Positions 21,229 through 63,783 of a DNA stretch of 64,000 nt are shown in pieces. Source of the stretch: Eledone cirrhosa (Eukaryota); assembly GCA_964016885.1 (NCBI GenBank), contig OZ024749.1:43958001-44022000 (forward strand), read 5' to 3'. The notes below the pieces were generated by a model. The model saw nothing but the letters and a program-made list of their open reading frames with translations. It had not been told where the DNA came from and made no database searches. The stretch's first letter is position 1. Each line of letters opens with the position of its first letter. The position numbers and the translations under genes are program-made.

Positions 21229-22305
<1,077 letters not shown>

Positions 22306-39779: not shown

Positions 39780-42700
39780 TTAGGTAATATGGTTAGTATC
39801 AGACACTGAGTCATTAGAACAAAACAGAACTTTACACAGGGCATCATTATTTTGCAAAGGTGTGTTTTTTGTTGATGAGGAAATTTGACTTAAAGAATAT
39901 AAATATTTTCTTTTATTCTTGAAGCATGGTTCTTGTGTCTGACTGAATACATCAGGTGATTTCAATGAGTCATCTTGTGTGTTTTTCTGTGTTGGAGAGA
40001 AAATATCAGGGGACAGTAAATATTGCTTTATATTTTCGGGTGTGTGATTAATAGGACCAGCTGAAGGTAAATAGCCTTGGTTGCTTTCCTGTGTTGGAGA
40101 AAATATATCAGAAAGCGATTGGCTACGAGAGTTGTTCTTTGTTTCATAGAATATATCTGGTGAATGTACAGAACTGCCTACATTTGTCTGTGTTTCGGGA
40201 AATATATTGGGAGTGTCATTATGTACAGAAGTGTTTTCCAATGTAGGGGGAAATATATTGACTGACTGTGAAAGAGTTTGTGTATTTGGGTAGGTCTGAG
40301 AAGAATCTTTAGAAGGATGTGAATAGCTATTTACATCTTGTGGCTGAGTATAGAATATATCAGGTGAAGCATAAATATCTAATGTTCTATTACATGATTT
40401 TGGTATCCTTTTACATAAATAGGTATTATTTTGTACTTTAATATTGGCTTTAATTGAATTTTGATCTGCTACTGTAAGAGTTTCTTGTAGGAATTCTGTA
40501 CTTAAAGGACCATTTTTAATATCACAGTTAATTTCTTTAAATAATTTAGGGGAGTGCATTTGCTGTTGACTTTCATCTATTTTAAATTTAAAACAGGACT
40601 GAAGTCTGTTGTCTAAACAAATGGTATTTGTGTTTTGAAAAGTAAATAAGTGTTTTGTTTCATCTTGTGTTGCGAGAAGAATTTCTGGAGAAAATAAATC
40701 TTGTTTTCCTGGAACAGTTTTACGAATTAATTCTAGTTCAGGTGATTTTTCCATATTTTGAAAACTGTTTTTCACTGTCTTAGAAATTATTAAAGAATTG
40801 CATTTAGAAATTTCTTTTGAGTTTACATAATTTGTAGCTTTAGGTGAATGGATGTCATTTTCAGACAATGTTCTTTGAGAGAACAAAGACTTGAAGTCTG
40901 TAGAATTTTCTGTTACTCCTTTAGATGAGTGAATAAATGCTTGATCTTTTCTACTGTGTTGCTTCATGGGTGAAAATGGTATATTGGTTGTCTTTGGTAT
41001 GGTATTAGAAGGAGAAAGTTTTTTCGTTTGGCATCCTGATTGAAGCAGATTAGAGTTATTGATTTTCTTGAAAATTTGTCTTTTCAAAAGGATTTTGGAT
41101 AGAACATTTTTAGACTTTTGATGATTAAAACTTTTACTAATACTATCTCTGGTATTTATAGAAATATTTCTCACTGAAACTGGAGTATTACTGGGCGTTT
41201 GTGGGATAAAATGATTTGAATATTTCAACGTAGAATTAAATAGATCTTCTGAAGTATTGCTTGACAATATGATATCAGTTGGATGAGGAGATGGTAAAAA
41301 CAGTTCAACTGAAGGATCCCATAACACTTGTGATACACCACCTTGTTCTTTGGGACTTTCTTGGGTGACTTGTTGAAGACTCACAGATGGTGATAACCGA
41401 GACTCAGAGATGCAACCATCAAAAGAAAAAATTGAAGGGGAATTCGAACAACATTGCCTTTGGTTCTCTGAAGATCTTTTAATTGGGGTTATTGGAAATA
41501 TATGTTCAATATTTTCTCCATCTGAAGAATGTTTTTGTGGCAGATTTATATATGATGGTTGATAAATATGGGGATGTGAAAGTGGTGTAGATGTAAGACT
41601 ATGGCATTTCCTAAGATTAACACTGGATGAGAAGACATGAAATCCAGTAAGAGAATTATCAATGTTTTTATGTGGTAATGACAAACAAGTGCGTTTATTT
41701 GAGGTGACCGCATTTGTAACTCTAGGAGAATATGGTAAACTTGAGAACTGATTTTTCATGGTTGTAGGTGAGATGATGTGGGACCTGTTAACTGGGATAG
41801 ATTGTTGATTTCTGTTCCTTGATCTTGTGGTCTTGTTTACAAACTGTTCAATTTGAGATATATTTTTATTGTTGTTTTTACTTACTTTTTTAGAAAAACA
41901 TAACTTTTCTTTTTTTCCATTATACAATAAATTTTCTTTATTTTCTGTAGAATCATTGCAAAGACACAGTTGAAGATATAATTTACAAAGGTTACATTTC
42001 TTCCTTCTCTTAGATTGATTTAAGGCAGACGATGGTCCTCTTTCTAAGTCAGAATCTTGTTTAGAAAGACACTGTGTTGGTGAATAGGTTATTTCTTGAA
42101 AGTGAGGAAGCTGTTTTGAAGAAGTGGATAAAGAACTGTCATGAGCAAAATTAAGCAGTTTCTTAACTTTGTTTCCAAATGGAGAATCAGAATTCATAGA
42201 AGTGGTACTTCCATTAATAGAATCATCAGCAGATAACATTCTTTTAATATGAAACCGAGAGGGGGTTATGGCTGAGAGATTAATTTCTGATATATCTTCA
42301 GGAAATATATTGCAAATATTATCTGAAAGACTGAGTTTTGGTGATGATTCTTCAATATAGCTAACCTTTGACTTAATTGTAGAATTAAGTGTGACCATAC
42401 ATCTCTTAGTAGACTGTGGCTTGAGTACATGTTCATTTGTAGAACCGATTTTTGTAGGATAATTATTAAATATATTAGAAGCATTTTCATTATTTGAATG
42501 AGTTTTAGTTACAATTTTAACTGGACCAGGTAATAAACATAAATCTGTACTTTTATCAAAACGTTTGATATCTTTCTTCATAATAGTTTTTCTTGGGGTA
42601 ATTTTATTTCTAGTCTGAATAAACTGGTTTGTTTCATTCAAATTATGATTGTGGAACTTGAATTCTGAATACTGTATCATATTTCCAATAGATTGACGAT

Positions 42701-44309
42701 TACTTTTCTTTAATTTGTCACTGTCTTTGTACCTTGGGTTATTGGAGACTAAAAAATTGTCTTTCCAGACACATTTTAAAAAACGATAAGGAACTGCCAA
42801 GTTGAGAAGGAAATACGTTACAGTTGATGAATGGAAGCTTAAAAGAGAAAGAATATTTATCTCCCTTGTTTTCCAATAAATCATTTCTATTGTAAGATCA
42901 CAAATATCTCCAGTCCTTATATTGTTTGCAGTCACCATAGTAAAGGCATTCAAATTAGACTTATTGCCAGAAGCTACATTGAAAGGTGTTTCAAAATTAT
43001 AACCTTCTAGAAAACACATCTCGTTTTTACCAGATTGCGTTTTGTGCATTTGATTTTGTTCAGTCTTTTCATGAAATTCAGAAAATTGTTCATGTGAAGA
43101 ATGTGGGGAGTTGTTGAAGCTGTTTAAGAAGGCCTCCAAGTCTTCTGATTCAGGAGCATATGAGACATGATTGTTATTTACATTCATAGAACATTCCATA
43201 GAATAATCTTCATGTGAAGTGGGTAATCCTGGTAAATACTCATAATCTAAACTTGGAGAGTTATTCTTATCTAAAATGTTTTCGCAATCAGAGATGCAAG
43301 AAATAATTTCTTTATTCAGATTATCAGCAAGAGAAACTTCTGGAAGAGGATGCTTTTCCATAGTAAGATGTCCACATTGAACTTTCTCATCAGATAGAAG
43401 CAAATAATTTGATATATATCCTGCTTCCAAATCAGGAGAACTATTTATCATGAAAGATTTGGAAGTTTGTGTTGAACATGATTTTGTTACAAGATAAAAA
43501 AGATCTTTTGTTGTACATGAGTTTATTAAACAAGGGGTTTGGCTTATTCCTGAATTTGATATCAATATTTCTGAGCAATTACTGCTTGTTTGACTCCCAG
43601 ATGGATTCTGTTCACAAGTTAAAACAATTAACTCTTGAGAAAGTAAAGGAAAAGTGGAATTGCAATTGGTTCGCTCTATAAATATCGATGGTACTAGTGG
43701 AGCTGATTCTATTGATTTTCGAAGAGATGATTCGATAACTGTTGGAGGAGGAGGACTGTTTTGAGTTTCAATACTGTTAATCCTAGTCAGATGCATTTTA
43801 ATTGTGTATCTGGTATCAATACTGCAATTGATCATCTGAGAGGCAATTATGTTAGTTGGAAGTGTCTCGCAATGTTTTCTACTGCTCTTCAATACCGATA
43901 ACAGTGAAATGCTGGAATCAGATTCTCGAAGAGGGAGCAAAGTTTTAAAACCAAACAAAAAACTCTTCCCGGTAAAAAAATCATTCAGTAAATTCAATAT
44001 ATCTTTCGAATCATACAAACAAAATAAAGAATAAATCTCATTTGCAGAGTCTCCAAAGTAAGGTTCCAGTATTTTGCCAAAGACTGTAGCACTACAAAGA
44101 GCAGAGCTGTCAGCAATTTCAAGAGTAAGTCGGTATCGTTGAGGAATACTACATGCATTGTAGCCTATTTTACATTGTAAACAATGCCAATTTTTAGAAT
44201 AATTGTTTTGTAGTTTAGTGTAACATTCAGTACAATATGGATAGGTCACTTTAGGGTCAAGAACTTTGATCACTGTAGCCACAATTAATGCATTGTGTCT
44301 AGATGGCAT
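39780..44309 (-). CDS. DDIAS: DNA damage-induced apoptosis suppressor (noxin)-like, 1509 aa, single coding exon
   Basis: N-terminal RPA1-C-like zinc OB fold (IVATV...YPYCTECYTKL...CLQC...RYRLTLEIAD...TVFGKILEPYFG) matching the DDIAS N-terminus as recalled, then a long S/T/N-rich disordered region. A splice acceptor at 44346-44348 upstream of the ATG implies a non-coding first exon. Confidence 0.8.
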   Translation of the reverse strand: MPSRHNALIVATVIKVLDPKVTYPYCTECYTKLQNNYSKNWHCLQCKIGYNACSIPQRYRLTLEIADSSALCSATVFGKILEPYFGDSANEIYSLFCLYDSKDILNLLNDFFTGKSFLFGFKTLLPLRESDSSISLLSVLKSSRKHCETLPTNIIASQMINCSIDTRYTIKMHLTRINSIETQNSPPPPTVIESSLRKSIESAPLVPSIFIERTNCNSTFPLLSQELIVLTCEQNPSGSQTSSNCSEILISNSGISQTPCLINSCTTKDLFYLVTKSCSTQTSKSFMINSSPDLEAGYISNYLLLSDEKVQCGHLTMEKHPLPEVSLADNLNKEIISCISDCENILDKNNSPSLDYEYLPGLPTSHEDYSMECSMNVNNNHVSYAPESEDLEAFLNSFNNSPHSSHEQFSEFHEKTEQNQMHKTQSGKNEMCFLEGYNFETPFNVASGNKSNLNAFTMVTANNIRTGDICDLTIEMIYWKTREINILSLLSFHSSTVTYFLLNLAVPYRFLKCVWKDNFLVSNNPRYKDSDKLKKSNRQSIGNMIQYSEFKFHNHNLNETNQFIQTRNKITPRKTIMKKDIKRFDKSTDLCLLPGPVKIVTKTHSNNENASNIFNNYPTKIGSTNEHVLKPQSTKRCMVTLNSTIKSKVSYIEESSPKLSLSDNICNIFPEDISEINLSAITPSRFHIKRMLSADDSINGSTTSMNSDSPFGNKVKKLLNFAHDSSLSTSSKQLPHFQEITYSPTQCLSKQDSDLERGPSSALNQSKRRKKCNLCKLYLQLCLCNDSTENKENLLYNGKKEKLCFSKKVSKNNNKNISQIEQFVNKTTRSRNRNQQSIPVNRSHIISPTTMKNQFSSLPYSPRVTNAVTSNKRTCLSLPHKNIDNSLTGFHVFSSSVNLRKCHSLTSTPLSHPHIYQPSYINLPQKHSSDGENIEHIFPITPIKRSSENQRQCCSNSPSIFSFDGCISESRLSPSVSLQQVTQESPKEQGGVSQVLWDPSVELFLPSPHPTDIILSSNTSEDLFNSTLKYSNHFIPQTPSNTPVSVRNISINTRDSISKSFNHQKSKNVLSKILLKRQIFKKINNSNLLQSGCQTKKLSPSNTIPKTTNIPFSPMKQHSRKDQAFIHSSKGVTENSTDFKSLFSQRTLSENDIHSPKATNYVNSKEISKCNSLIISKTVKNSFQNMEKSPELELIRKTVPGKQDLFSPEILLATQDETKHLFTFQNTNTICLDNRLQSCFKFKIDESQQQMHSPKLFKEINCDIKNGPLSTEFLQETLTVADQNSIKANIKVQNNTYLCKRIPKSCNRTLDIYASPDIFYTQPQDVNSYSHPSKDSSQTYPNTQTLSQSVNIFPPTLENTSVHNDTPNIFPETQTNVGSSVHSPDIFYETKNNSRSQSLSDIFSPTQESNQGYLPSAGPINHTPENIKQYLLSPDIFSPTQKNTQDDSLKSPDVFSQTQEPCFKNKRKYLYSLSQISSSTKNTPLQNNDALCKVLFCSNDSVSDTNHIT

Positions 44310-45096
44310 TTTGATTTTTCCAAATCTGGAGATTATAGAAAATACCTGAAAAATAAAATAAAAGTGAATATTAATTAATCAGTAATTAATTTATTTATCT
44401 ATTTAATCAATTTAAAAGTATATATAAAGCTGGTAAGCTATGACAGACTTGAAAGGGTATCTAATATCTAAAAGCAAAGATAACTATAAAGTAGTTAAGA
44501 AGTTAGAGATTTAATCAAAATTTAGCTGACCTCCTACGATGTAGCACGTCATAGATTTGTTTTTTTTATAAACAAGGACCGTAAGTCTAGTTTAGTGTAA
44601 AGTTTAGTTTAGTATCAAGTTTAGTGTAAAAACAAAAACAAAATTAATTTTAGGGCTAATGTTTCCCTATATATCTATGGCTGTTACAAGTGATAAGAAA
44701 AAAAAATGGCACTACAACGGAATTGGCTGTCATTCGTCAACTTTCTCAATCGTCAAACCTTCGTTTATTTCCGTATCACCACCATGTGTAAATAAATAAA
44801 CTTTGAAATCACCACATTGATGCATAGTCATAGTTATCAAATTAGAAAACAAATGAAGTTCATGGGACATACGTCAAAACGGCCGGTCTGAAAAGTGAAA
44901 CTTATTTTTGACAGTTATGTACGTCATTAATTTCAATTTGGTTTGTGAATAGCTGCATGTACAAATACAAGACGTATAATGCAACAATAGAACATTGAGT
45001 TGTAGCAAGGGCAAAATAAGAAAAGAGAGTTTGCAAGGGAGATAACTAAGAGTAATCAGTGTCACCTTGAAGTTTCGACACCGGACAAAAACATAC
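44310..45096. promoter_or_regulatory. Probable bidirectional promoter, DDIAS/NDUFB6
   Basis: Divergent start codons are only ~790 bp apart. Confidence 0.55.
44708..44866 (+). mobile_element. Partial second copy of the CACTA-like MITE
   Basis: GGCACTACAACGGAATTGGCTGTCA...; reverse complement of about 38366-38551 with a small deletion. Confidence 0.7.
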
Positions 45097-47620: not shown

Positions 47621-50275
47621 TTGCGTTGATTTGAACGAATCACAAGAAGTTGTTTTTTTGTGACATACGTATGATCATGTCAACACTTCTGCTTGGTGTT
47701 GTTTATCGCTCCCCAAACTACCATCAGGACACACAGCTTTGCGATATCCTCAGAGCTGCTGCCAGGAAAACAGCCACTTATGTGTTTATTGCAGGTTACT
47801 TCAATCATGCTGAGATCAATTGGGAAACCTTTCATTGGCCACAAAGTGCAAACGATTTCCTTGAGCTAGTGCTGGACTCAAACTGGTCACAAGTAGTCAC
47901 CTCTCCAACAAGAGGTGACAACACTTTGGATCTGATCTTCACCACTACTCCTGAAGTGGTTATCAGTTGTACTACTGAGGAACCTCTAGGCGACTCTGAT
48001 CATGCTATGATCATTGCCAATCTGGCTCTTGCGAGCAGCAACAAAAACCAGAACCATCTCCAATCTGCTTGCTTTGATTGAAAGAAAGCAGATTGGAACT
48101 TGTACTGCACTGAGCTACAGTGCCCAAACTGGCATGAGTTGTATAACTCTGAAGATGTGAACACTATACTCCAGAGCATCCTGGACTCAATATGGATAGC
48201 ATGTGCAGCATCGGTGCCACGTAAGCAGAAAAAAACCCACCCCACAAGTGCAATTTGGGAAACTTCAGCGGTCCGACTTGCCAGGAAAAAACGTTGGAAC
48301 GCTGAACGGGAATATAAACTGCATAAATTAGATGCCAACAGAAAAAAGCGGAATAAATCTTCCAACCATCTCAAGCAAGTGACAAAGAAGGCAGTGCTTG
48401 AATTTGAACAGTGCATAGCAACTAATCCTGACAGTAAGGTGTTCTGGAAATATGTTCATTCAAAGCAGAGACCTCACTCTCCAGTTGGTCCTCTTCACAA
48501 TCCCCACACAAGCCAGATCACTGACGATCCCAAAGAATGCGCAGAACTCATTGCTGAGTGCTATGCAAGTATTTTTACTGTTGAAAACCAGAATGTACCA
48601 TCTCCACCATCTCTAACATCAAATTCCATAACAACTATGGAATTTACACCTGCAATGTTGCGACGTCACCTTAAGAATAAGCGCAACTATGCCTCCCCTG
48701 GTCTTGATGGTGTTACATACCTGCTTCTCAAACGTGGCGGGTACTTCCTTTTGCACCAGCTTTCTTTCTTTCTTTCAATACTGTCTCAACAATGGTGCTA
48801 CTCCGGAGCAGTGGAAAACTGCCAGTGTCATTCCCCTGTTCAAAAAGGGCAACCGCATGTCACCTGTCAACTATCATCCAGTCAGTCTTACTAGCTGTAT
48901 TGCCAAACTGATGGAATCCTGTGTCAGAGAAACACTTTGGAAATTCTGGAGCTCTCACAGCCTCATCCGCCCCTCGCAGTTTGGATTTATCCCTAACTCC
49001 AGCTTATCGAGTTCCTTGAAGACATTACCCGGATCCCTGACAGCGGCTCATGGGTGGATATTGTTTACCTTGACTTTGCTAAGGCATCTAATTCTGTACC
49101 ACACAAAAGACTTATGGCAAAACTCTCTGCAATGGGTGTGAGGGATGATCTTTTTAACTGGTTGAAATCCTTCATTCTAAGCCGAAAACAGGTAGTCACG
49201 GTTCTAGGACAGCATTCTTCACCATATGAGATGTCATCTGGTGTACCACAGGGATCTGTTCTTGGTCCCCTTTTGTTTGTGGCATATATTAATGACATAG
49301 ATGCCAACTTAAAGAATGCCACGGTACTGAAATATGCAGATGACATCAAGCTGTACCTTGAAATCAAAAGGACTGATCCTGAAATCTACAACTCTTTCCT
49401 ACAATCAGACCTGGACACAATGCGGCAATGCATCACAGACCGGCAACTGAAGCTGGCTGTGGACAAGTGTACCACCATGCATTTTGGGAAGAAAAATCCA
49501 ACGTCCACATACTCCCTCCACAACACTGATATCAAGAAGTCCGCTTGTGAACGTGACCTGGGCATTACTGTCAGCAGCGATTTGCATTGGACAAAGCATG
49601 TCTCTAAGATTGTCAAGAAGGCCGAGGGTGTCTTGGCATCACTCAGCATAGACCTTTGTTAGCCGCTCTCCAGCCATCTATTTAAAGCTGTATACAGCTA
49701 TGTTACGACCACACTTGGAATTCGCATCATCAGTCTGGAACTCCTATCTTGCTCAGAACATTGACCTCCTGGAAACTGTTCAGAGACGTGCAACCAAGCG
49801 CATACCCTCCATCAGACACCTACCATACTCTGAACGCCTTGCTTCCCTGGGCATGGATTCATTGAAGCTCCGACATCTGGCAATGGACTTGGTAAACACC
49901 CATAAAGTTATTAACCATCTCGCCAACAACAACCCTGAGCACCTTTTTCTAACACATGTGGACGTGCCTACAAAATCAGAAAACAGCACAGCTCCCATGA
50001 CTTTCATAAACATTTTTTCATGCTCAGAGTTGCTGAAGCATGCAACAAACTGCCTGCGTCAGTTGTTAGCTGCCGAGACACTGCATCCTTTAAAACCCTC
50101 ATGTTTCCCGAAATACGCCAAAACTACACCTGATGTACCCCTTCCATACACACGTGTATATCATGACTCATGCACTCTTCATTTTCCTGACGTTTGTACA
50201 TTACCCTATGTACTATACATACACTTTTTGATGAGTTATAGTGCACCTGAGCACTGTACACAATATTTCATTATT
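47621..50275 (+). mobile_element. 5'-truncated CR1-clade LINE (endonuclease + RT), disrupted
   Basis: GVVYRSP, PTRGDNTLDLIF and LGDSDH (APE); YLDFAKA, SGVPQGSVLGPLLF, YADD, RPHLEF and VQRRATK (RT). In-frame TGA at 48079 and several frameshifts; ends in (ATT)n. Confidence 0.9.
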
Positions 50276-50672
50276 ATATCCGGCCAGAATTCTTTCACCT
50301 CTTTTTGTTCAAACTGGCTGTAACCAGCTACTCATACTAATGTTGAGGTACTGTTTTCAAAATAAATAACATCAAAATATCAGAGATTCGATATTATGTG
50401 AGAAAAAGCCTTTACCACAAAAATACAATAGTATATATATATATATATAGAGAGTAATGTAAATACTAAAGAGTTAATGTCTATTTTCCACACTTGCATG
50501 GGTTAGACAGGCCATCACCACATGAGACAGATTAAGTCAAGAGACCACATCTTTCTCATACGGATCTGTATTTTAGCTTGGTTTCCACAGCTGGATGCCT
50601 TTCCTAACACCAACCATATTACAGTGTGGACTGGATGCTTTTTGTTGTTTTATCAGCATAACGACCATAAAA

Positions 50673-53800: not shown

Positions 53801-55816
53801 TTAGTAATAGCATTTTTTTTTTTTAAACCCCTCTAAAATTTTTTTTGTATTTTCAAAATAAATTGAAACTTTTTTATTAAAAAAATATGGTCAGAAAAAA
53901 GTTAAAGAAACAATAATAATCTTGTATATGTAATATATTATATATATATATATACATAGGCCATTGAGGTGTTCTCTGAGAACTTTTGATTTGTGCAAAT
54001 GTTTACATTTAAGATATATGTGAGCCATTGAGAGTCTCAGACCATTTCAAATTTTTGTAAGATATATAATATACATGTGAGCCATTGAGGTGCTTTCTGA
54101 GTGCCTTGAACATATTCAAATTTTTGTAACATATGTGGACCTCAGATGTTTTCAAATTTCAAATATGGCCCAAGATTAAAGGTAAGCCACTGTAAAGAGA
54201 AGTTGCTAATTCCTGCCCTAGGCAAAAAACCTGAGATAATCAACGCAAGATATCAACTCATCTGAATCTGCCTCCCATCCACCCATTTTAAAGAGTCAAT
54301 ATTTGTCAGAATCTTTGTTAAATTATGTCCCAAACACCAGCTTAATTACACTGAATCCTAAATTCTTGATTAAATTTCAAGATTAATTGAAACATTGCAA
54401 GTAGTGCATTTCATTAGAAACAAGTGACTGAAAATATACCATGGTCATTCTGAGAAAACATAATACAATAATAAGGCCACAAATTTTGGGATATGAAGGG
54501 GAAGTGGTTATTGTGAACTACCACCATCCCACCCCAATACACATCTAGTATTTATTCTATCGACCAAGCCATCATTTTACAGAGTGAAAAGATATATATA
54601 TATAAATATATGTATATCATCATTATCACTATTTAATAATAATATATATATAATAATGAAATAATATCCAATATGTGTGTGTATATGTATATGTCCACAT
54701 GTAGGTGTCACGACAAAAAGCACCCAGTCCATACTGTAAAGTGGTCGTGTAGGAGAGACAGTAAAAAGGCTCACAGTCCACACTGTAAATGTGGTTGGAG
54801 TTAGAAAGGGCATCCAGCCATAGAAAATCTGCCAGATACAGTCCTATATGAACAAGACACGATCACCCAACCAATCTAGCCTCAAGTGGGAAAATTCCCA
54901 TGCTAGCGTGGAAGATAGACGATGATATATATATATCAAGTTGTGCGCCAATCAGCCAAAGAATACGATAAAGTTATCTCAGTATATATACAGTATAGAT
55001 GTAAACAAGTCTGCTTGTGTGCTCTTAGCAGAGTCCATTCTGTTGTAAACATTCTGTTTGAGAATATCAAGATCTCCCCACCCCTTTCTTCCATCAGTCA
55101 CAGAGGCCCTGAGAAAAAGCTATGGGTACAACCCTCACTCTTCTGACGAAACCATTAAAAAAAAAAAAACCTTGTTAACCTCTCAGCTGGTTGTTTGATA
55201 TGTTATTAAGTCAGTCATTCATCCCTGTTTTATTGCTATTGGAATGACTAACAGTAAAATATAAGTTTGAATAGAACTATCTGTGGATATAGAGTTGAAA
55301 TTCCATTATAATGAAAATTTCTTCTTTCGACTGAAACAAATTGAATGTTTGTTTGTTATTACCTGAGGGATTGAAAAAATTTCATTATACTGAAAAATTC
55401 ATAACGGAATTTTACCTGTATTACACACTAGATTTGTCATTTTCACCTGAAGAATATTTCCAACGGTTTAGTGGGGTGGGTGGATGGGATGGTTAAAAGT
55501 TTTTAAAAATCCTCTGTACTCTAATAAACTTTATTTCAACTTAGAGGATTTAAAAAAATAAAATTAAAGAATCCAATGCAAACAAAAAATACAGAAGTAC
55601 GAAAAGGTTATAGAAACAAAAAAAAAAAAAGAACCAGCTAAAGTGGTTTGTGAAATTTTACTAATTGTGAAAATATTTTCTTTTATTTATCTTATAATTC
55701 TCATAAGTTTGGAGAATTTATTCAAAAGGATGGAGATCAATTAGAAGGCGGATGAAAAAAAAAATTTAAATTGATATGTGTATATGTGAAACCATGTGGT
55801 AACTTATTGGTTTCAT

Positions 55817-55817
55817 A

Positions 55818-55902
<85 letters not shown>

Positions 55903-55923
55903 ATGTGTATATATATATGTGTG

Positions 55924-55954
<31 letters not shown>

Positions 55955-56259
55955 GTGTGTATGTATGTGTGTGCATGTATATATGTGTGTGTATATATAT
56001 GTGTGTGTATATATATGTGTGTATATATATATATGTGTGTGCATATATATATGTGTGTGTATATATATGTGTGTATATATATATATATGTGTGTATATAT
56101 ATGTGTGTGTATATATATATGTGTGTGTGTATATATATATGTGTGTATATATGTGTGTGTGTATATATATGTGTGTATATATATGTGTGTGTATATATAT
56201 ATGTGTGTGTGTATATATATATGTGTGTGTGTATATATATATATGTGTGTGTGTGTGTG

Positions 56260-56342
<83 letters not shown>

Positions 56343-56430
56343 GTGCATGTGTATATATATATATATATATATGCATATATACAATATGTTGAAAAGGTAA
56401 CATATATATGTATATATATATATATATGAT
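55817..56430. repeat. (TA)n/(TG)n compound microsatellite
   Basis: Seen directly. Confidence 0.95.
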
Positions 56431-56667
56431 ATGGGTGAGGGAAATACCTCAGAGGAATATTCTAAAGAAAAAAAAAAAATATGAGTGGATCTTAAATTCA
56501 TGGGTTGTTTCAGAAAATTTTGGAACGTAAGAAAATTTCATTTAAAATATAGCAAATGTCTTCAGGTTAAATGAAATAAAAGAAAATTTGGTACTAAAGA
56601 TTCTCTACGATTAAACAGATTATACAAAAATATTATTACTATTTTTTTTCAAAAATGATCTTTAAAA

Positions 56668-59600
56668 CTACAACTGAAATAGTTTTATGTATAAAATGGT
56701 TAACACTACAAAAATCCAACTGATTCGGAATGAAGACGCTCCAGCAATTCGGCATTTTAATGTGTCATACCTAAAAAAGAATTAAGCAGAAAAATTATAT
56801 CAGTGAGGACATTTTTCTTATTGTTACAGAGTGACATTAAAGCTTTCTGGGTAATGAATAAATAAAAATATTATAAGGGATGGATCTTATCTTTGAGGGA
56901 AGAGTAGATTGTGTGATGCCTGCATCAGGAGTGCGATGTTTCATGGAAGTGAGACATGGGCAGTAAATGTAGAGGTTAAAGAGAAATGAAGTGAGCATGC
57001 TACGATGGATGTGTGATGTTCATGTATGATGAGGCGTCGATGAACTGATAGAAAAGCTATGTATAAGAATAATCAGATATAGTGCACGAGAGTGAAGACT
57101 GCACTGGCATGGATGATCCCTGGGTAAAGCCAGGAGATAGCTGTGGAATGAAGCTACAATAGAAGAAGTGGTGGCAGTAGTCTTACCTGTTAGCTTCATT
57201 TCTCATCTTTTTGTTGTATTCTTCAACCATTGTCTGACCATTGTAATACCACTGCAGATCATTAAATGGATATTCATAGCCCTGTTTACATTCACACTTG
57301 TAGGAGCCTTCCGTGTATTTCAAATGAGATTGTAAAGGAACACACTGGAAACAGGAGAGAATATGACATCTTAACCAAAGAGAAAAAAAAAAGTCATATT
57401 GCTGGGGGTGCTGCTGCTGCATTCCCCAACAAAAAATTGTTGTCAGAAAATTTTTAAATTTTCCAAAAATATTGTATACTTTGATCATTTATTTTAATTA
57501 AACAAAATATAATAAAATATGTACAATACAATAATGAATAAAGATGTCATAATAATTGTTTCTACTTTTAGCACAAGGCCAGCAATTACCCAATGCATTA
57601 CTGGTACTTTATATTATCGACCCCGTAAGGATGAAAGGCAAAGTTAAATTCGGCGGGATTTGAACTCAGATCATAAAGATGTCATAATAATAATTGGCTA
57701 GCATAAAAATTATGAACATCAGCAATCCCCCAAAATGATACAAGCAATAGGCTTATCATCTTAACCCTTTTGATACCAACCCACATTAAACCACTCCTGG
57801 TTTAATGAAACAACTATTCATAATGTTCAAACTTATATTAAAACCTTCCCTCATAATTTTATAATAAATGGGCAAAGAAGAAGACATATACGTACACACA
57901 CATTTACATATCATATATTATTTTTACAAACACTATATAAAATTAAAGCAGCTTACATAAGTGGTCTCATAGTCACAGCGAGCAGTGCTTTTAAAGGCAT
58001 TGGCTACATAGAAGCTGGCAGGGCATTGATCGAGATCTAAATAATTTATGTCGACATCAACTGTAATAACACCCCTGAAATTGAAAACAAAATGAAACTG
58101 AGGATTATTAAAGGTTGACAAATGAGAACAGAAATACAGAAAAAAGATTAGCTAGAAGCTAGGTGTATAGCTCATGCTCTAGGCATGCACTTAGAATTAG
58201 ATGGACAGCTCATATAACAAATGAATGTCTAGTTCTGGTACTACAATGAAATACACCCAGTACACACTGTAATGTGGTTGGTGTCAGGAAGGGCAACCAA
58301 CCCTAGAAACCATGGCAAAATGGAACATATTAAGTTAGCTGTGGACTCCAACCTATCTAGAAGGACATTATCACTGATTAAATAGTGATCTGGTCTGTAA
58401 TTATCCAGATGTAAAATGATGATGATGATGTCAAACCAATACAAGGATGGAAAAAGGATGTAAAAACAATGGTGATGATGATAATGAAAGTATATAGATA
58501 ACTTACTTAAATTCAATTTGAGTCTTCAATGTATTTGTTCCAAAAAATGGCACAACATAAGTGAGAACCCAAGCATTAACTCGGTCATCACACTTAAACA
58601 CAGGGCGTAACCATTCTCCATCTTCGTATTTCGGTGCATAATATGTGAGAGGGTAATACTCGAATCGTATTAAACTGGACCCATTGATGTCCGACCGCAT
58701 CATTGGACGAGTTATAAATTTCTCCAGTGAATGATAGTTTGTAGCCCAACGAGATTTCATGTCCGTAAACCAACGTTTATCAGTATAACGGTCTTTGAAA
58801 CCAGCAAAATCAATAACTCGGGATCTTGTCTTATCTCCAGTTTTCCAAGCAAATGGACCAAAGTATTCCCGCGTTACTTCATTTACATAACGTGGATCGG
58901 TATTATTTCCAGGCGATATCCGATATTTATATTGATCAAAGAATATACCAGAACCAAGTATCTTGAAGTCACTCATTACAGTAGCTATAACCTCTCCATA
59001 CATTTGTGTATCGTGTAAACGACGATCACCTCTAAGAATACCAAATTCTTCATACTCGTCAACATTTTGAAGAAAATTACTGAGAAAATGGGCAAGTCTT
59101 AGTGCAGATCGCCCTTGAGATTCAAACTGCTTCTCAGCACCATAGCCAGCATCTCCAGGAAGAAGCAGTTGGTTTGCTGTTAGGTGTTTGCAATTATCTT
59201 TTGTTGTTTTCTGTTTACGTTCAATAATTTCTCTCATTCTCATCCACATGACATTGTCAAAGAGATCTCGTTTCTTACGAGAAAGATTGCCTTCTCTGGC
59301 AACAAACCGTCTAGCTGTGCTGGTCTTTAAGGGAATGAAATCTTTTGAAGAGTACTCCATATTTGGCGCAATCCATCTCAAACTCCTGTGAGCAGTAGGA
59401 AATATAATTTTCAGAAACTCATCATGTTTTGAACTAAAAGATGCTAGGGATCGTTTCTTAACGTTTTCAATGATTTCTGGGTTCTTTTTAGGGATCACCT
59501 GGGCAACTAGAGATAAAGAGAAAAAGCAAAATTAGGTGAATTTTATTCGCTCTTATCTAAAACAGAGCCAGAGAGACATACTCACAGAAAGTTAGAAAGG

Positions 59601-61041
59601 AAGAGATGCAGAAAAATAAAGAGAGAGAGAGAGAGGAGAGATAGAGGGACTGAGAGTACATACAAATAATATAAGCAATAAAAAATGTTAAAAAAATACT
59701 GAATTTTCTTACAATCAACTGGGACACAGTCAAAGCCATTCTCATATTCCTCTTTAGTAGAAGCTTCTATTTCTACTCCAAGGAAAGGTCCATCATGCCA
59801 CCAGGGGTATTTGTATAAAGGTTGACATGCACACATGTAACTACCACGTCGAAAACCAAATCCACTCAAAGGTTCACACTGAAAAGAATATTATACATTT
59901 TTAGATTTTACAGGCAAAACCAACTGGGAAGAGACACAGGTGTAGATCCCGAGAGCAAAATAGTTGAATAGCATCCATGAGCACAGCTGCTCTCTCTTGG
60001 AGAACTAATTGGATCAGTTGGAGATGGTTGCTTCTGACAGGACCCACTGGAAGCCGTGTTTGAGGACTCTGCTCCCACAACTCTCTCAGGAATAAGTGAG
60101 CGATGAAAAATAAATATTCTACTGAAACTCAGTAACAACAAAGAGTAATCTCAGTAATATAAATATTTTGACTACCTTGGTATTGAACATTTTTTACTCA
60201 TGTTTGGCAAAAAGCACCCAGTACACACTGTAAATGTGGTTGGCATTAGAAAGAGCATCCAGCCGTAGAAACCAAGTCCAAATCAGTTCTGTCCCCCAAC
60301 CTGATCCCTCATAAAGGGACATTCCGTCCTACCCATGCTAGCGTAGAAGATAGACATTAAACAATGATATAACAACAATGAGGTTTCCAAATGCTAACAT
60401 ATGAACATATGTGTGAGTTTCAACATCATTGTTTAAAGTCTATTTTCTATGCTTGCATGGGTTAGACAGGTTGTCACATTTTGAGGCTACACTAATCAGG
60501 TAATCATGTCATGCTCATGCGCTCCATGTTTGGCTTGGTTTATATGGCTGGATGCCCTTCCTGTAAGGTGGTAGTGTTGGTGTCAGAAAAAATGCACCCT
60601 GCTCACCCTGTCAGATGGTTTGCATCAAGAAGAGCATCCAGCTATAGAAACTATGACAAATATGGACTGTAATAAGCAACATTGGTTGCTCTGACCCATC
60701 TTATCTCAGTAACAATCCATCCAACCCATGCCACCATGGAAAGGGGGGGGGGGGGGCATAAAATAATGATGATGAAAGCAAAACAACCTTTTCTCATCAA
60801 ATCACCTCCCATCTTACAATTAATATGATGATGATGATGATGATGATGATGACCACTATTGCTGTCTGTCCATCTCTCAAAGATTTAAAATAAACCATTC
60901 TTACCAGAGTGGTAGACTTGCATCGTGCTGTGCCAGCAAAATAGTTTGGTGCGGGGTTTCCTTCAGATGTTGGGCACGGATTAAAGTCAATGCGTTCAAA
61001 TTCCAGATCAATACTTGTAACAGCCACAAACCTAAATAAAG

Positions 61042-61090
<49 letters not shown>

Positions 61091-61154
61091 CCGGGGAAGG
61101 AAGTGTGGTATATACATGTATATATATGTGTATTCAATCTGCCACCCACCCCAT

Positions 61155-61199
<45 letters not shown>

Positions 61200-61371
61200 A
61201 AAAGAGTCAGGACCTTGACGGCTGAGCTCCAGCCATTTCGACAGCTAGATTCGAAATAGCCGGAGTTCAGCAGTTGGAGTCCTGACTCTTTTCCTATGAC
61301 CCACTCTACTACCCTAAGTATCGAGTACTCTGGTGCGTTATGGTCCACCTGGTATCTTACCACACCTTCTT

Positions 61372-61449
<78 letters not shown>

Positions 61450-61497
61450 ATCCAACCCATGCAATCATGGAAAAGGGGACGTAAAAACGATGATGAT

Positions 61498-61535
<38 letters not shown>

Positions 61536-61935
61536 AATATACACGGGTGTGTATGATTGTGTATAGAAAATTATATTAATATAATGAACCTGAAGATTGC
61601 GAAAGCATGAAAGTACTTGTTCAATTAATACTTAACATTTAATATTCTACCATACTATTTCATTCTAATACCATTATACATTTTAAAGGATTGTAAATAA
61701 AACGAGTAAATCAGACAAAGTTGGAATTCCTTTTATTAATATATATATATATATATATAACGAAGGAAATGTGGTAAGGAACCAGGTGGACCATAACGCA
61801 CCAAAGTACTCAATACTTGAGGTAGTAGAGTGGACAATAGGAACCAGTAAGACCCCGACAGCTGAGCTCAAGCCGTTTCGACGGCTAATTCTGTCGAAAC
61901 GGCTTGAGCTCAGCTGTCGGGGTCTTACTGGTTCC

Positions 61936-61967
<32 letters not shown>

Positions 61968-63783
61968 GAAATATATGCTATCGCCGTATTTTGACTAAAG
62001 AAATTATTTAGCCTGATAGTGGGGTTAAGAACCCTCGGAGAAATGGAAAAAGATGATGTGTTGGTGTAATGATAGCACAGTGGTCTGGATAACCGCAGAT
62101 GTGGGTTCGACTCCCATGTACGTCAATACTCATCTTTTTCCATTTCTCCGAGGGTTCTTAACCCCACTATCAGGCTAAATAATTTCTTTAGTCAAAATAC
62201 GGCGATAGCATATATTTCTAATTTCAAACTCGCTCGCTGTTTCGAAAACATTCTTACCTATATATATATACACACAAAAACTCCAACAAACTAATCAAAT
62301 TGAAGCAATTAAATATTGAATTTTTTTAAAATCCAGCGATTCAGCTCTGCGGCGTCTGGGGCGAAAACCACACTATTCGGCAACTAGCTTGAAATCAACA
62401 ATATCCCTACATCTCTTTGCCAGGCACTTAGCATACATTTTACCAGGGAGGCTTAACAAGGAGAGCCCTCTTTAATTGGAGAAAGCTGTCTTGTCTCTCT
62501 TTTTGATAATTGAGATTATCACTCCCGATTGCCATTGCTAAGGAGCCTTTCCAGAGAAGCAGGGTTCCTGGCACACTTAAGTAAGCCAGAAATACTTCCT
62601 CTATTTTAGGCTTTTAACATCTCAGGTCGAAATTCATACTCCCCAGATGCCTTACTACATTTGAGCTCTTTAATTGCTCTTGTGACTTCAACCTCCAAGA
62701 GGACAGTCATCGCTCCCAGTATGAGTCTAATTACCCTTACCGGGTACCAAATAACCATACTTAAGATATAAATATTTAAGTGGATAAAATATATACTTAC
62801 TGAGGTCTTCTTAAATGGGTAGAGTTTGAATAGCGAGGCATAAATTCAACAACAGGAGCTGTTGCACTGACAATCCACTTATTTGTTCGTCCACAATCAA
62901 AGTAAGGATCAGTGAAGACAACAGGAAGATACATTTGTTCTAGACTCCCTGGTTGAGGAGGACCAAAGAAAGACGAAACTTGGAAACCATCAGTGACAAA
63001 TTCACCTGTCTTCTCCGATCTTCGAACACCAACATTATAGGTATACTTCCTAAGAGTGTCCAAGTTATTGTTCAAATCAGGTAACCATTTACTGTACCAA
63101 GGGCTGTGTTTATAGGCTGGATTGCTGTAGTTGTGACTACGGCCTGCTCCATAATCGTGAATGTCAATTGTATTGTTTGTGGGTTCCCGCAACCAATTTG
63201 TGGGTTCGTTGTAGTCATCTACCCGCCAAGCTTTAGGGCCAAAGAGAGGCAGAGTATCGTTCAATCTCATCGTAGTGTACCAATTAGGGTATGAACAGTT
63301 GTTGTCAAAAAACAGTCCACTGCCGTTTATCATACTAATTCCAGCAGACACATCGGCGGCCAGAGAGAAGTAAATATACTCAAACCCTGGTTGTTTTATT
63401 AGGGCTTCGCTCTTGTTAAGTTCCTGATAGATATAACTGAAATAAAATGCCCGGTTAAGAGCCAAGTTGTGAGCGTGCAAAAGACTAGATCTGTTCGTGT
63501 AATAAACGGTAGAGAGGAAAGTATTATAACGAGGTATTTGAGATACAACGCCTTTCAGAAGGTTGGTGTCTAAACGAAGGTCTGTATAATGTTTCGAACG
63601 ACAATTATCTCCTGTTACCGCTGTAAACTTTTCCATTATCTCATCAAAGTTATCCTTAGGAGAAAGTTCAAAAGGTTGAGCGTCAATTAAAGGACCATTC
63701 CAAGAAAGTAAATATGCGAATGTGCAAACAAATATTATAAATATTGTGTTGAGGCCGCCACTATAACTCGGCCTCAGCTCCAT
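56668..63783 (-). CDS. Secreted/GPI-anchored protein with two tandem GPR158/GPR179-like ectodomains (Cache-like + EGF-like), 884 aa, 7 coding exons
   Basis: Exons 62801-63783, 60905-61031, 59713-59878, 58507-59506, 57957-58074, 57187-57344 and 56668-56770; GT-AG, phases consistent, 2655 nt. N-terminal hydrophobic signal. Motifs PYFDC...[15 protein letters not shown]...F..TARC and [18 protein letters not shown] resemble the GPR158 ectodomain and occur twice. C-terminus is [25 protein letters not shown]. Confidence 0.8.
61195..61378 (+). mobile_element. Hairpin+tail element in (TA)n, copy 1
   Basis: Hairpin 61195-61297 plus an ~80-nt tail. Confidence 0.7.
61585..61623 (+). ncRNA. Minimal type-I hammerhead ribozyme motif (Penelope-type)
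   Basis: TGAAC-CTGAAGA-T.TGC.GAAA.GCA.T-GAAA-GTAC-TT-GTTCA: stem I TGAAC/GTTCA, conserved core, GAAA-capped stem II, palindromic stem III AAGTACTT. Confidence 0.7.
61759..61938 (-). mobile_element. Hairpin+tail element in (TA)n, copy 2 (inverted relative to copy 1)
   Basis: Perfect 46-bp arms 61837-61938; tail homologous to 61298-61378. Confidence 0.7.
61963..62258 (+). mobile_element. Perfect 94-bp inverted repeat element with tRNA-like loop and 35-nt tail
   Basis: Arms 61963-62056 and 62130-62223 are exact reverse complements; tail 62224-62258; (TA)n on both sides. Confidence 0.8.
62055..62125 (+). tRNA. tRNA-like cloverleaf (GGA at the anticodon position), probably a pseudo-tRNA or element head
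   Basis: Acceptor GATGTGT/GTACGTC, D GTGT/GCAC, anticodon GTGGT/ACCGC with loop CTGGATA, 4-nt variable loop, T arm GTGGG-TTCGACT-CCCAT, discriminator A, and T5 about 10 nt downstream. Confidence 0.55.
62340..62745 (-). mobile_element. Degenerate LINE RT N-terminal fragment
   Basis: Minus-strand [18 protein letters not shown] matches the pre-RT 'EV..AI..LK..KA.G' motif. Confidence 0.5.

Follow-up and report, generated by a model that had tools for sequence, protein, structure and literature searches.

GPR158, the metabotropic glycine receptor (mGlyR), and GPR179 are vertebrate class C GPCRs; no other receptor of class C is known to us to carry an ectodomain of the Cache type. Both ectodomains dimerize via their long Cache helices (GPR158, PMC8611064; GPR179, PMC11437087), and the GPR179 ectodomain has 12 cysteines, paired in a single Cache disulfide and five CR disulfides (PMC11437087). 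Smog, a relative in flies, is termed a Gpr158 homologue (bioRxiv 10.1101/2024.03.11.584337). A second point of reference is alpha2-delta, described in PMC5092059 as an extracellular, membrane-associated, Cache-containing auxiliary subunit whose precursor is cleaved into two associated chains.

The stretch of Eledone cirrhosa DNA analysed here (the window, 64,000 nucleotides) contains a minus-strand gene, 63783-56668, whose product resembles two such receptor ectodomains in a single chain. An independent rebuild of the gene model gave seven exons and a CDS of 2655 nt encoding 884 aa, reproducing the length and coordinates of a preliminary description of this DNA. All six introns are GT..AG, and five of the six have a GTAAG donor. 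The features are as follows, with a slash marking the putative cleavage point of each basic site.

62801 to 63783, minus strand: exon 1, with the start codon, a signal-like segment (63783-63679), the N-terminal helices and most of the predicted Cache part of unit 1
60905 to 61031, minus strand: exon 2, the predicted final Cache strands of unit 1 and the start of its EGF-like part; PF22572 E 8.7e-7, AG acceptor, GTAAGA donor
59713 to 59878, minus strand: exon 3, the EGF-like Cys-rich part of unit 1 and stalk; PF22572 E 1.1e-4
58507 to 59506, minus strand: exon 4, the linker and most of the predicted Cache part of unit 2; a 342-codon open frame
59451 to 59459, minus strand: KKR/S dibasic site, residues 442-444, at the start of the linker
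59268 to 59279, minus strand: RKKR/D furin-type site, residues 502-505, immediately N-terminal to unit 2
57957 to 58074, minus strand: exon 5, the predicted final Cache strands of unit 2 and the start of its EGF-like part; PF22572 E 7.7e-9, phase equal to that of exon 2
57187 to 57344, minus strand: exon 6, the EGF-like part of unit 2 and stalk; PF22572 E 0.013 and weak matches to EGF families, entry phase equal to that of exon 3
56668 to 56770, minus strand: exon 7, a conserved ..YDTLKCR motif, AGASS (56745-56731), a hydrophobic end (56730-56671) and the stop codon

Exon 1 is an open frame with a GTAAGT donor, and its octopod orthologue is 83% identical (E 2.8e-190). Four of the invariant cysteines discussed below (371, 386, 388 and 421) are encoded by exon 3. 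The linker spans 59713-59268, taking in the last base of exon 3 and otherwise lying within exon 4, which finds matches in 211 representative clusters at E<=1e-3. Exon 7 is placed by its reading frame, its splice sites and comparison with orthologues. The closest AATAAA lies ~950 nt 3' of the stop, past a (TA/CA)n microsatellite, and is uninformative. A search of sequencing runs for this species returned no RNA data; a small run (X4) considered as a transcriptome covers intergenic DNA contiguously and shows no exon-exon joints for this gene, and it was set aside.

The encoded protein opens with a hydrophobic segment (residues 8-33), followed by unit 1 (~36-425), the linker and unit 2 (~506-858), and ends with AGASS at 860-864 and a 20-residue hydrophobic stretch that runs to the stop. 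Each element listed in the preliminary description, namely a signal-like N-terminus, two units, the KKR/S and RKKR/D sites, AGASS, a hydrophobic end and no 7TM, was found again in the rebuilt protein. The two units align with one another (E 2e-17, 23% identity). Six exon frames were scanned with Pfam: five match PF22572 (GPR158_179_EC) at E 7.7e-9 to 0.07, and that of exon 4 matches no family. PF22572 also occurs in two stretches in all six orthologues scanned (E 1e-42 to 2e-48). The invariant cysteines number 16, all of which are kept in the Eledone cirrhosa protein. With parallel exon phases, and with eight invariant cysteines in each unit standing in register with the eight of the other, the architecture is an internal duplication of one unit. 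Separately, matches of unit 2 to Bartonella adhesins comprise a 34-residue motif at 41% identity whose 11 repeats inflate the E-value, and were judged non-homologous.

The closest homologues are octopod proteins, likewise of 884 aa, at 82-83% identity (E 1e-188 to 1e-190), and an orthologue from Drosophila simulans aligns over residues 39-878 at 36% identity (E 8e-173). The ortholog survey suggested in the preliminary description uncovered a protostome-wide family that keeps the two units and the tail; its members, of ~800-970 aa, occur in molluscs, annelids, brachiopods, flatworms and arthropods including Drosophila, with one each from a tardigrade and a nematomorph. Members from Schizophora, Drosophila included, cluster at 90% identity. 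Among columns identical in at least 95% of 44 relatives, the gene model keeps 114 of 116, departing at two near-invariant glycines in the EGF-like part of unit 1 (S383 and L391); across 45 sequences from Spiralia and Ecdysozoa, 114 positions reach an identity of 95% or more. Judged from these alignments, with octopod relatives of equal length and 114/116 columns kept, the homology of the gene lies far above chance level; the Eledone cirrhosa gene is no isolated oddity but an orthologue within a large family of protostome proteins, which has been under strong constraint ever since the ancestor of the protostomes. Two members, LOC106873574 of Octopus bimaculoides and GD20036 of Drosophila simulans, share with the Eledone cirrhosa protein the length class, the two PF22572 stretches, the invariant cysteines and the ..KCR, small-residue and hydrophobic end, with no structural difference; within the family, spiralian members such as that of Eledone cirrhosa differ from arthropod members in a longer linker with furin-type sites. 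Database labels call these proteins "uncharacterized" or "GPR158/179 extracellular domain-containing protein". Our literature search, which could pass over fly papers using only a CG number, found nothing on a receptor-less GPR158/179-ectodomain family; within that scope, an earlier functional characterization, which would have counted against the preliminary description, did not come to light.

Structure predictions were run on an octopus orthologue (P0002) that is 82% identical to the Eledone cirrhosa protein. Its AF2 model, built with 44 sequences, has a pLDDT of 78.6 and a pTM of 0.80, with pLDDT <50 at linker residues 436-451 and 463-502. A Foldseek search of the PDB with this model returned GPR179 as the best matches (8irj_A, E 2e-11; 8d1b_A, E 1e-8), followed by GPR158 (7ewp/7ewl, E 8e-5 to 5e-4) and then bacterial Cache sensor domains. 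A PDB search by sequence found only GPR158 and GPR179, five distinct sequences in all (E 4.6e-10 for a single-protein query, 1.2e-17 for the family profile). Each unit is thereby predicted to adopt a Cache fold, as first proposed, and shares with GPR158/GPR179 the N-terminal helices, a Cache/PAS-like core, an EGF-like Cys-rich part and the PF22572 matches. The similarity in sequence is confined to a stretch of about 100 residues at the end of each unit, i.e. the final Cache strands and the EGF-like part; pocket residues are thus not comparable, and the comparison lends no support to small-ligand binding. When unit 1 and unit 2 of P0002 were modeled as a complex, ipSAE was 0.85/0.85/0.84 against 0.00 for the best of three controls; at least 82% of contacts were in common between runs, and partner pLDDT was at least 81. 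In the calibration of the method, which took in 78 solved complexes and 108 mismatched pairs, 51 of the former and 2 of the latter attained the ipSAE mark applied. The pass may stem from the model's memory of solved GPR158/179 homodimers. Within the predicted interface, unit 1 helices ~98-147 lie against unit 2 helices ~554-604. These are the long Cache helices, as in the homodimers described for GPR158 (PMC8611064) and GPR179 (PMC11437087). The expectation that the two modules would pack as a dimer is therefore matched by prediction for the orthologue: the units are predicted to form an intramolecular, helix-to-helix pseudo-dimer resembling the receptor ectodomain homodimer, built from two diverged units (23% identical) in a single chain where GPR158/GPR179 use two identical chains. 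Unlike those receptors, the protein lacks both the 7TM and the RGS-binding part in the cytoplasm, and instead ends in a lipid-anchor-type tail. Each unit has 8 invariant cysteines against the 12 given for the GPR179 ectodomain in PMC11437087, and the Cys-rich linker found there, with five disulfides (10 Cys) beside the one in the Cache domain, is not matched here; the receptor's 7TM-contacting, membrane-proximal part thus seems to be missing.

Several other readings of the locus must be weighed. A genome-wide 7tm_3 (PF00003) search returned 20 matches, none of them on the window's contig (C9), and none at E<=0.01 was found in the six orthologues scanned, which agrees with the original proposal of a receptor-less protein and reveals no 7TM exons on the contig into which its transcript could splice. 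As a positive control, the same search located 7tm_3 exons beside two receptor-type GPR158 genes on C5 and C2, on the same strand as their PF22572 exons and 19-41 kb from them (one pair ~163 kb); the genome therefore carries at least two receptor-type GPR158-like genes. These distances of tens of kb, together with a gene model built purely from genomic sequence, are what speak for a truncated model whose true transcript runs on into class C receptor 7TM exons, but we consider this extremely improbable given the empty result for C9. Moreover, the downstream 56 kb contains 54 open frames of 110 codons or more, and the 10 scanned gave nothing but retroelement remnants, an ORF resembling Helitrons and a zinc-finger gene. 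The identical in-frame terminal exon and tail recur in orthologues ranging from flatworms to flies, and many of these orthologues lie on contigs of 2.5-3.7 kb, taken as transcripts, with barely room beyond the coding sequence. The nature of that tail is a separate matter. A small-residue run a few residues upstream of a C-terminal hydrophobic stretch is the usual layout of a GPI signal, and the alpha2-delta proteins are GPI-anchored, the role of their anchoring motif reportedly being questioned in the title of one paper. The GPI-like layout first seen in Eledone cirrhosa, with its ..[KR]CR motif, small-residue run and hydrophobic stretch, holds across protostomes: among full-length homologues bearing the CR motif, a hydrophobic 12-mer lies no more than 8 aa from the C-terminus in 45/45 spiralian and 118/121 arthropod proteins, followed by a median of 1 residue, and a small-residue run stands straight after the invariant CR in 39/45 and 121/121, respectively. 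Hydropathy and motif counts match the GPI-signal layout of N-terminal signal, omega-site region, spacer and hydrophobic end, and GPI anchoring is likely. That the protein is instead a type I membrane protein, crossing the membrane once and leaving almost no cytoplasmic tail, is quite unlikely by comparison with these counts, the AGAS-like run and the single trailing residue both speaking against it; nevertheless, an anchor with a 0-5 residue tail would fit the sequence equally, the terminal stretch of 16-20 residues has a helix predicted at 865-883 in the orthologue model, and many orthologues end with 2-5 polar or basic residues (e.g. ..LLWKH, ..LYRFS).

The furin linker proposed in the preliminary description held up in part: its motifs are present here and throughout the spiralian homologues, but are not a family-wide feature. 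The linker region of 44/44 spiralian homologues carries one or more RX[KR]R sites, often 2-5, and one always directly adjoins the start of unit 2, in a linker that is otherwise poorly conserved (column identity 0.15). In arthropods, such sites were seen in 0/16 linkers inspected and in 1/101 orthologues whose linker was located by script; cleavage is thus not needed for the core function of the family. A reading of the linker as a peptide-hormone precursor was dropped, since the sequences between the dibasic sites are poorly conserved. In Eledone cirrhosa, RKKR (502-505) falls at the 463-502 stretch of pLDDT <50 in the orthologue model, and an RX[KR]R/dibasic motif in a predicted-disordered stretch of a secretory-type protein is the sequence pattern of a furin substrate. 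The first site, which aligns to R[KR][KR]R/S in many molluscan homologues, is here KKR with no Arg at P4. That shortened site and the arthropod orthologues, which function without any, would suit a single-chain protein whose linker sites go unused, the basic motifs being incidental or, for example, heparan-sulfate-binding. We think this unlikely, given the persistence of RX[KR]R in every spiralian examined within so variable a linker, and its fixed position before unit 2 in a stretch predicted to be disordered. Convertase cleavage, as predicted from the motifs, would be specific to spiralians and may not occur in Eledone cirrhosa. A shed or soluble decoy, soaking up the ligand of the animal's own GPR158-type receptors rather than acting as a co-receptor, could draw on the receptor-type genes on C5 and C2 and on the ectodomain type common to both, but is very unlikely: the membrane-anchor signal is strictly conserved, and similarity to the receptors is low beyond ~100 residues, so a common ligand is not implied.

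With moderate confidence, we favor a secretory-type, 884-residue tandem GPR158/179 Cache and EGF-like protein without a 7TM, predicted to form a pseudo-dimer, likely GPI-anchored and likely cut at the dibasic sites flanking its linker, which would serve as a surface ligand-binding module signalling only via a separate membrane partner. In such a pathway, the signal peptide would be removed near residue 35 and GPI attached within the AGASS run; a convertase would cut at KKR/S and RKKR/D, excising or opening the ~80-residue disordered linker and leaving two non-covalently associated chains. The product might then act as a co-receptor or auxiliary subunit, engaging matrix proteins and/or, within a Cache pocket, a small ligand, in the way that alpha2-delta serves calcium channels. 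The likeness to alpha2-delta lies in this pattern of single precursor, two chains and auxiliary subunit, of which cleavage and role are conjectural here. Alpha2-delta has a VWA domain with MIDAS and double Cache domains; Pfam scans of the exon frames and six orthologues found no VWA domain, the Cache subtype differs, and a fold search with the P0002 model places alpha2-delta chains no higher than ranks 21 and 40 (probability <0.1). Furthermore, alpha2-delta chains are disulfide-linked, whereas the even set of 8 cysteines per unit leaves an inter-chain bond unneeded.

In this locus, a GPR158-type ectodomain stands alone, duplicated into a predicted heterodimer and predicted to be membrane-tethered, and it offers structural studies and ligand screens a natural single-chain version of the ectodomain dimer. 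A wider proposal, which we hold tentatively and consider rather doubtful, is that of a class C ectodomain dimer in one chain, ancient and shared across protostomes: a receptor-less Cache sensor with a lipid anchor that would catch a small extracellular ligand or matrix protein and relay to a membrane partner distinct from itself, perhaps a channel or the GPR158/Smog-type receptors. Spiralians would have added convertase processing to yield a two-chain complex. If true, the family would fill the place of an auxiliary subunit so far missing from neuromodulatory or morphogenetic signalling in invertebrates, testable via the highly conserved Drosophila orthologue. If its members work through a partner to sense ligands or to organize contacts at synapses or with the matrix, they would represent an unstudied signalling component with a fly orthologue available for genetics.

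Two long stop-to-stop frames, 360 and 342 codons in length, lie on the minus strand between 56668 and 63879, along with several short frames. Exon borders were read from the sequence and then joined by script into a single open frame with GT..AG at 6/6 introns, giving a coding sequence of 2655 nt and a protein of 884 aa. The coordinates and length of this rebuilt model are identical to those of the preliminary description.

Exons of the gene (joined open frame, GT..AG introns)
63783-62801, minus strand, exon 1
61031-60905, minus strand, exon 2
59878-59713, minus strand, exon 3
59506-58507, minus strand, exon 4
58074-57957, minus strand, exon 5
57344-57187, minus strand, exon 6
56770-56668, minus strand, exon 7

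The encoded protein has a hydrophobic N-terminal segment (residues 8-33), 11 N-glycosylation sequons, and two units that align with one another over ~390 residues (E 2e-17, 23% identity). The units are joined by an ~80-residue linker with two basic sites, KKR|S at 442-444 and RKKR|D at 502-505, and the chain ends in ..[37 protein letters not shown]. Since each unit is encoded by one large and two small exons, with phases matching between the units, the gene structure suggests that a three-exon module was duplicated in tandem long ago. These data show that the gene is intact and that its product is of secretory type, lacks a receptor body and contains two ectodomain units of the GPR158/179 type. 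About 130 bp past the stop codon begins a (TA)n/(CA)n microsatellite, ~800 bp long (55737-56537), which probably lies inside or just beyond the 3' UTR.

The family assignment was made by domain. The GPR158/179 extracellular domain (PF22572) matches five of the six exon frames tested against Pfam; the exon 4 frame matches no Pfam family. In 6/6 full-length orthologues the domain is found in two stretches (E 1e-42 to 2e-48), together with weak MCP-like_PDC_1 and EGF family matches, and Pfam scans of these six proteins contain no 7tm_3 (PF00003). When all PDB sequences were searched, GPR158 and GPR179 were the only matches, over roughly the final 100 residues of a unit (E 4.6e-10 with one protein, 1.2e-17 with a family profile).

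Structural prediction used the Octopus bimaculoides orthologue (P0002) as a stand-in, with an alignment of 44 sequences. In the AlphaFold2 model (pLDDT 78.6, pTM 0.80), confidence is low at the N-terminus and in two stretches of the linker (436-451, 463-502) but nowhere else. A Foldseek search against the PDB returned eight matches at E<=1e-3, comprising GPR179 (2e-11, 1e-8), four chains of GPR158, and two bacterial sensor domains; at lower ranks come many ligand-binding domains of Cache and dCache chemoreceptors. The model thus agrees with the Cache-like fold first proposed from the sequence. Unit 1 (36-426) and unit 2 (506-858) were also predicted together as two chains. In line with the expected packing of the two Cache+EGF modules as a dimer, ipSAE reached 0.85/0.85/0.84, the best of three controls scoring 0.00, with at least 82% of contacts common to the runs and partner pLDDT of at least 81. 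In calibration, the ipSAE mark was reached by 51/78 solved complexes and 2/108 mismatched pairs. Confident contacts are formed in unit 1 by helices ~99-149 and in unit 2 by helices ~554-605, together with adjoining strands; several invariant residues are located in these helices. Excerpts of PMC8611064 and PMC11437087 describe the same side-by-side helix packing for the homodimers of GPR158 and GPR179, respectively. Structures of these homodimers have been solved and the predictor may be reproducing them, so that the predicted packing shows likeness to receptor dimers rather than binding. The units are predicted to adopt a Cache fold and to form an intramolecular pseudo-dimer that copies the receptor ectodomain dimer.

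The preliminary description had also found no 7TM body, and the genome search agrees. None of the 20 PF00003 matches in the 3.0-Gb genome falls on the contig that carries the gene (C9). As a positive control, PF22572 matches on two other contigs, C5 and C2, lie 19-41 kb from 7tm_3 exons on the same strand (one pair ~163 kb); the genome therefore possesses true GPR158-type receptors, and the method detects their 7TM exons, albeit weakly (E ~1e-3).

Apparent receptor-type GPR158-like genes with PF22572 and 7tm_3 exons (profile search)
G000:C5:77211163-77252139, plus strand
G000:C2:298991180-299154733, minus strand

Two more PF22572 matches, G000:C1:341833774-341833926 and G000:C1:342595084-342595299 (both minus strand), have no 7tm_3 nearby and may represent a receptor-less paralogue, as is found in octopods (P0058). 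The 56 kb downstream of the stop codon hold 54 frames of at least 110 codons, ten of which were scanned against Pfam, with many frames over a giant AT-rich repeat left out. The scanned frames comprise non-LTR retroelement remains, an ORF of 1532 codons with an RPA-like domain and a C2H2 zinc-finger array, and the rest match no family. Moreover, the C-terminal motif and tail are common to orthologues from flatworms to flies, and many orthologues lie on contigs of 2.5-3.7 kb, scarcely longer than their coding sequence, which we take to be transcripts.

The unbroken 1532-codon frame (39780-44378, minus strand) begins with a Replication factor-A C-terminal domain (E 4e-8) and may be a Helitron-type element. 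The non-LTR retrotransposon remains (47635-50323, plus strand) are broken across several reading frames and include one for an endonuclease-reverse transcriptase and one for RVT_1, and the zinc-finger frame (21229-22305, minus strand) has 358 codons and at least nine C2H2 fingers. Between ~5500 and ~13600, G+C is just 5-15% and both strands carry open frames, the longest of 1797 codons; this region is a very large simple or AT-rich repeat across a 200-N assembly gap (10563-10762). Pieces of the gene itself also recur elsewhere in the genome. A 375-bp copy of 58414-58788, 97.9% identical, is found at 1501-1875 of a locus on contig C26 (L002, G000:C26:12719456-12722740). It spans the end of exon 4 and 93 bp of intron 4, and is thus a genomic fragment duplication, not a processed copy. 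Beside this fragment (L002 1-1191), an element of ~125-135 bp from intron 5 (57544-57678) forms a tandem array with copies ~180 bp apart at 89-94% identity; it is probably SINE-like or a satellite. Within exon 4, a 90-bp piece (59000-59089) is 94% identical to positions 1501-1587 of a locus on contig C4 (L003, G000:C4:191439418-191442504).

An exon 1 query among longer proteins gave 50 matches of 684-1004 aa, the best being octopod proteins of 884 aa (82-83% identity), followed by other molluscs, annelids, a brachiopod and flatworms. With exon 4 as the query, an exhaustive search yielded 211 representative clusters at E<=1e-3, and name look-ups added tardigrade, decapod shrimp, copepod and nematomorph members. 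Queries with shrimp and fly proteins gave 302 and 320 matches; the best 120 of each are nearly all insect or crustacean proteins of ~800 aa. The orthologue survey called for at the outset thus extends across molluscs, annelids, a brachiopod, flatworms, arthropods, a tardigrade and a nematomorph, with no deuterostome or cnidarian member among the matches listed. One 90%-identity cluster of 129 members includes Drosophila and Musca orthologues of 807-810 aa, and the ESM Atlas cluster containing the octopus orthologue has 1026 members, mostly Arthropoda. Database labels read 'uncharacterized protein' or 'GPR158/179 extracellular domain-containing protein', with a few 'probable G-protein coupled receptor 158' or 'Fras1 related extracellular matrix protein'.

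The Eledone protein is 36% identical to GD20036, its D. simulans orthologue, over residues 39-878 (E 8e-173). An alignment of 45 sequences from both superphyla has 114 positions with an identity of 95% or more, among them 8 + 8 invariant cysteines in register.

Invariant cysteines
Unit 1: 61, 297, 347, 365, 371, 386, 388, 421
Unit 2: 531, 731, 776, 792, 799, 815, 817, 857

The Eledone protein keeps 114 of 116 near-invariant columns, and hence shows no sign of decay. At residues 383 and 391, in the EGF-like part of unit 1 (exon 3, 59878-59713), it carries Ser and Leu in place of a Gly that is near-invariant in 44 relatives; either the lineage has changed here or the sequence contains an error. 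A 34-residue stretch of unit 2 (residues ~699-730, exon 4) is matched at 41% identity, in 8-15 repeats, by trimeric autotransporter adhesins of Bartonella (P0138, P0142, P0195); their E-values look inflated by repetition, and homology was rejected, the likeness being judged chance. Sequence comparison shows the gene to be one orthologue in a large, unnamed, old and strongly constrained protostome family; as such it is ordinary, one among more than a thousand. Our literature search found no paper on a receptor-less GPR158-type family: in the excerpts available, an eLife survey handles Cache + EGF solely as a receptor architecture (PMC12716839), and another study concerns a true fluke GPCR (PMC6114109).

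The C-terminal tail is as widespread as the units. A C-terminal CR motif is present in 45 of the 48 spiralian proteins with a length of 750 aa or more; two of the others stop short of the tail and one has QCR outside the pattern. In 45/45 no more than 8 residues follow a hydrophobic 12-mer near the C-terminus (median 1, maximum 5), and in 39/45 a small-residue run immediately follows CR. Of the 131 arthropod proteins in this length class, 121 carry the motif, with a terminal hydrophobic stretch in 118/121 and the small-residue run in 121/121; the ten exceptions comprise six with QCR/SCR outside the pattern, two that end just before the tail, and two with an unrelated C-terminus, whose gene models may be fused or wrong. 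A small-residue run followed by a terminal hydrophobic stretch is the usual layout of a GPI-attachment signal, and the Eledone protein is thus a candidate for a GPI anchor.

The linker is far less conserved than the units (column identity 0.15, versus 0.61 and 0.59). At least one RX[KR]R site lies between residues ~397 and ~630 in 44/44 spiralian homologues listed, often two to five, with one just past unit 1 and one directly before unit 2. No linker site was seen in the 16 arthropods inspected, and RxKR-P lies inside unit 1 in four crustaceans; the tardigrade has no linker site and the nematomorph has one. A scripted count found a site in 1/101 located arthropod linkers (20 not located), versus 34/35 in spiralians (10 not located). 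This distribution suggests convertase cleavage into two associated chains in spiralians.

Overall, the initial observation is confirmed, and its interpretation, a cleaved, surface-anchored ectodomain heterodimer, is partly supported. We infer that the protein is a ligand- or matrix-binding surface module needing a transmembrane partner, in which the two chains would stay associated after spiralian cleavage and a GPI anchor would tether the module to the surface. The α2δ proteins, which are GPI-anchored, offer a comparison. As Cache-bearing, membrane-associated, cleaved auxiliary subunits, they may be functional analogues (excerpt of PMC5092059); family membership is ruled out, since no VWA domain was found in Pfam scans. 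The GPR179 ectodomain has 12 cysteines (excerpt of PMC11437087) versus 8 per unit here, which suggests that the membrane-proximal spiral loop is missing. In GPR158 this loop contacts the 7TM (excerpt of PMC8611064), and its loss would fit life without one. The gene is a class C Cache ectodomain in tandem within an anchor-only architecture, the anchor itself being putative, and represents a functionally unexplored family that is testable in flies.
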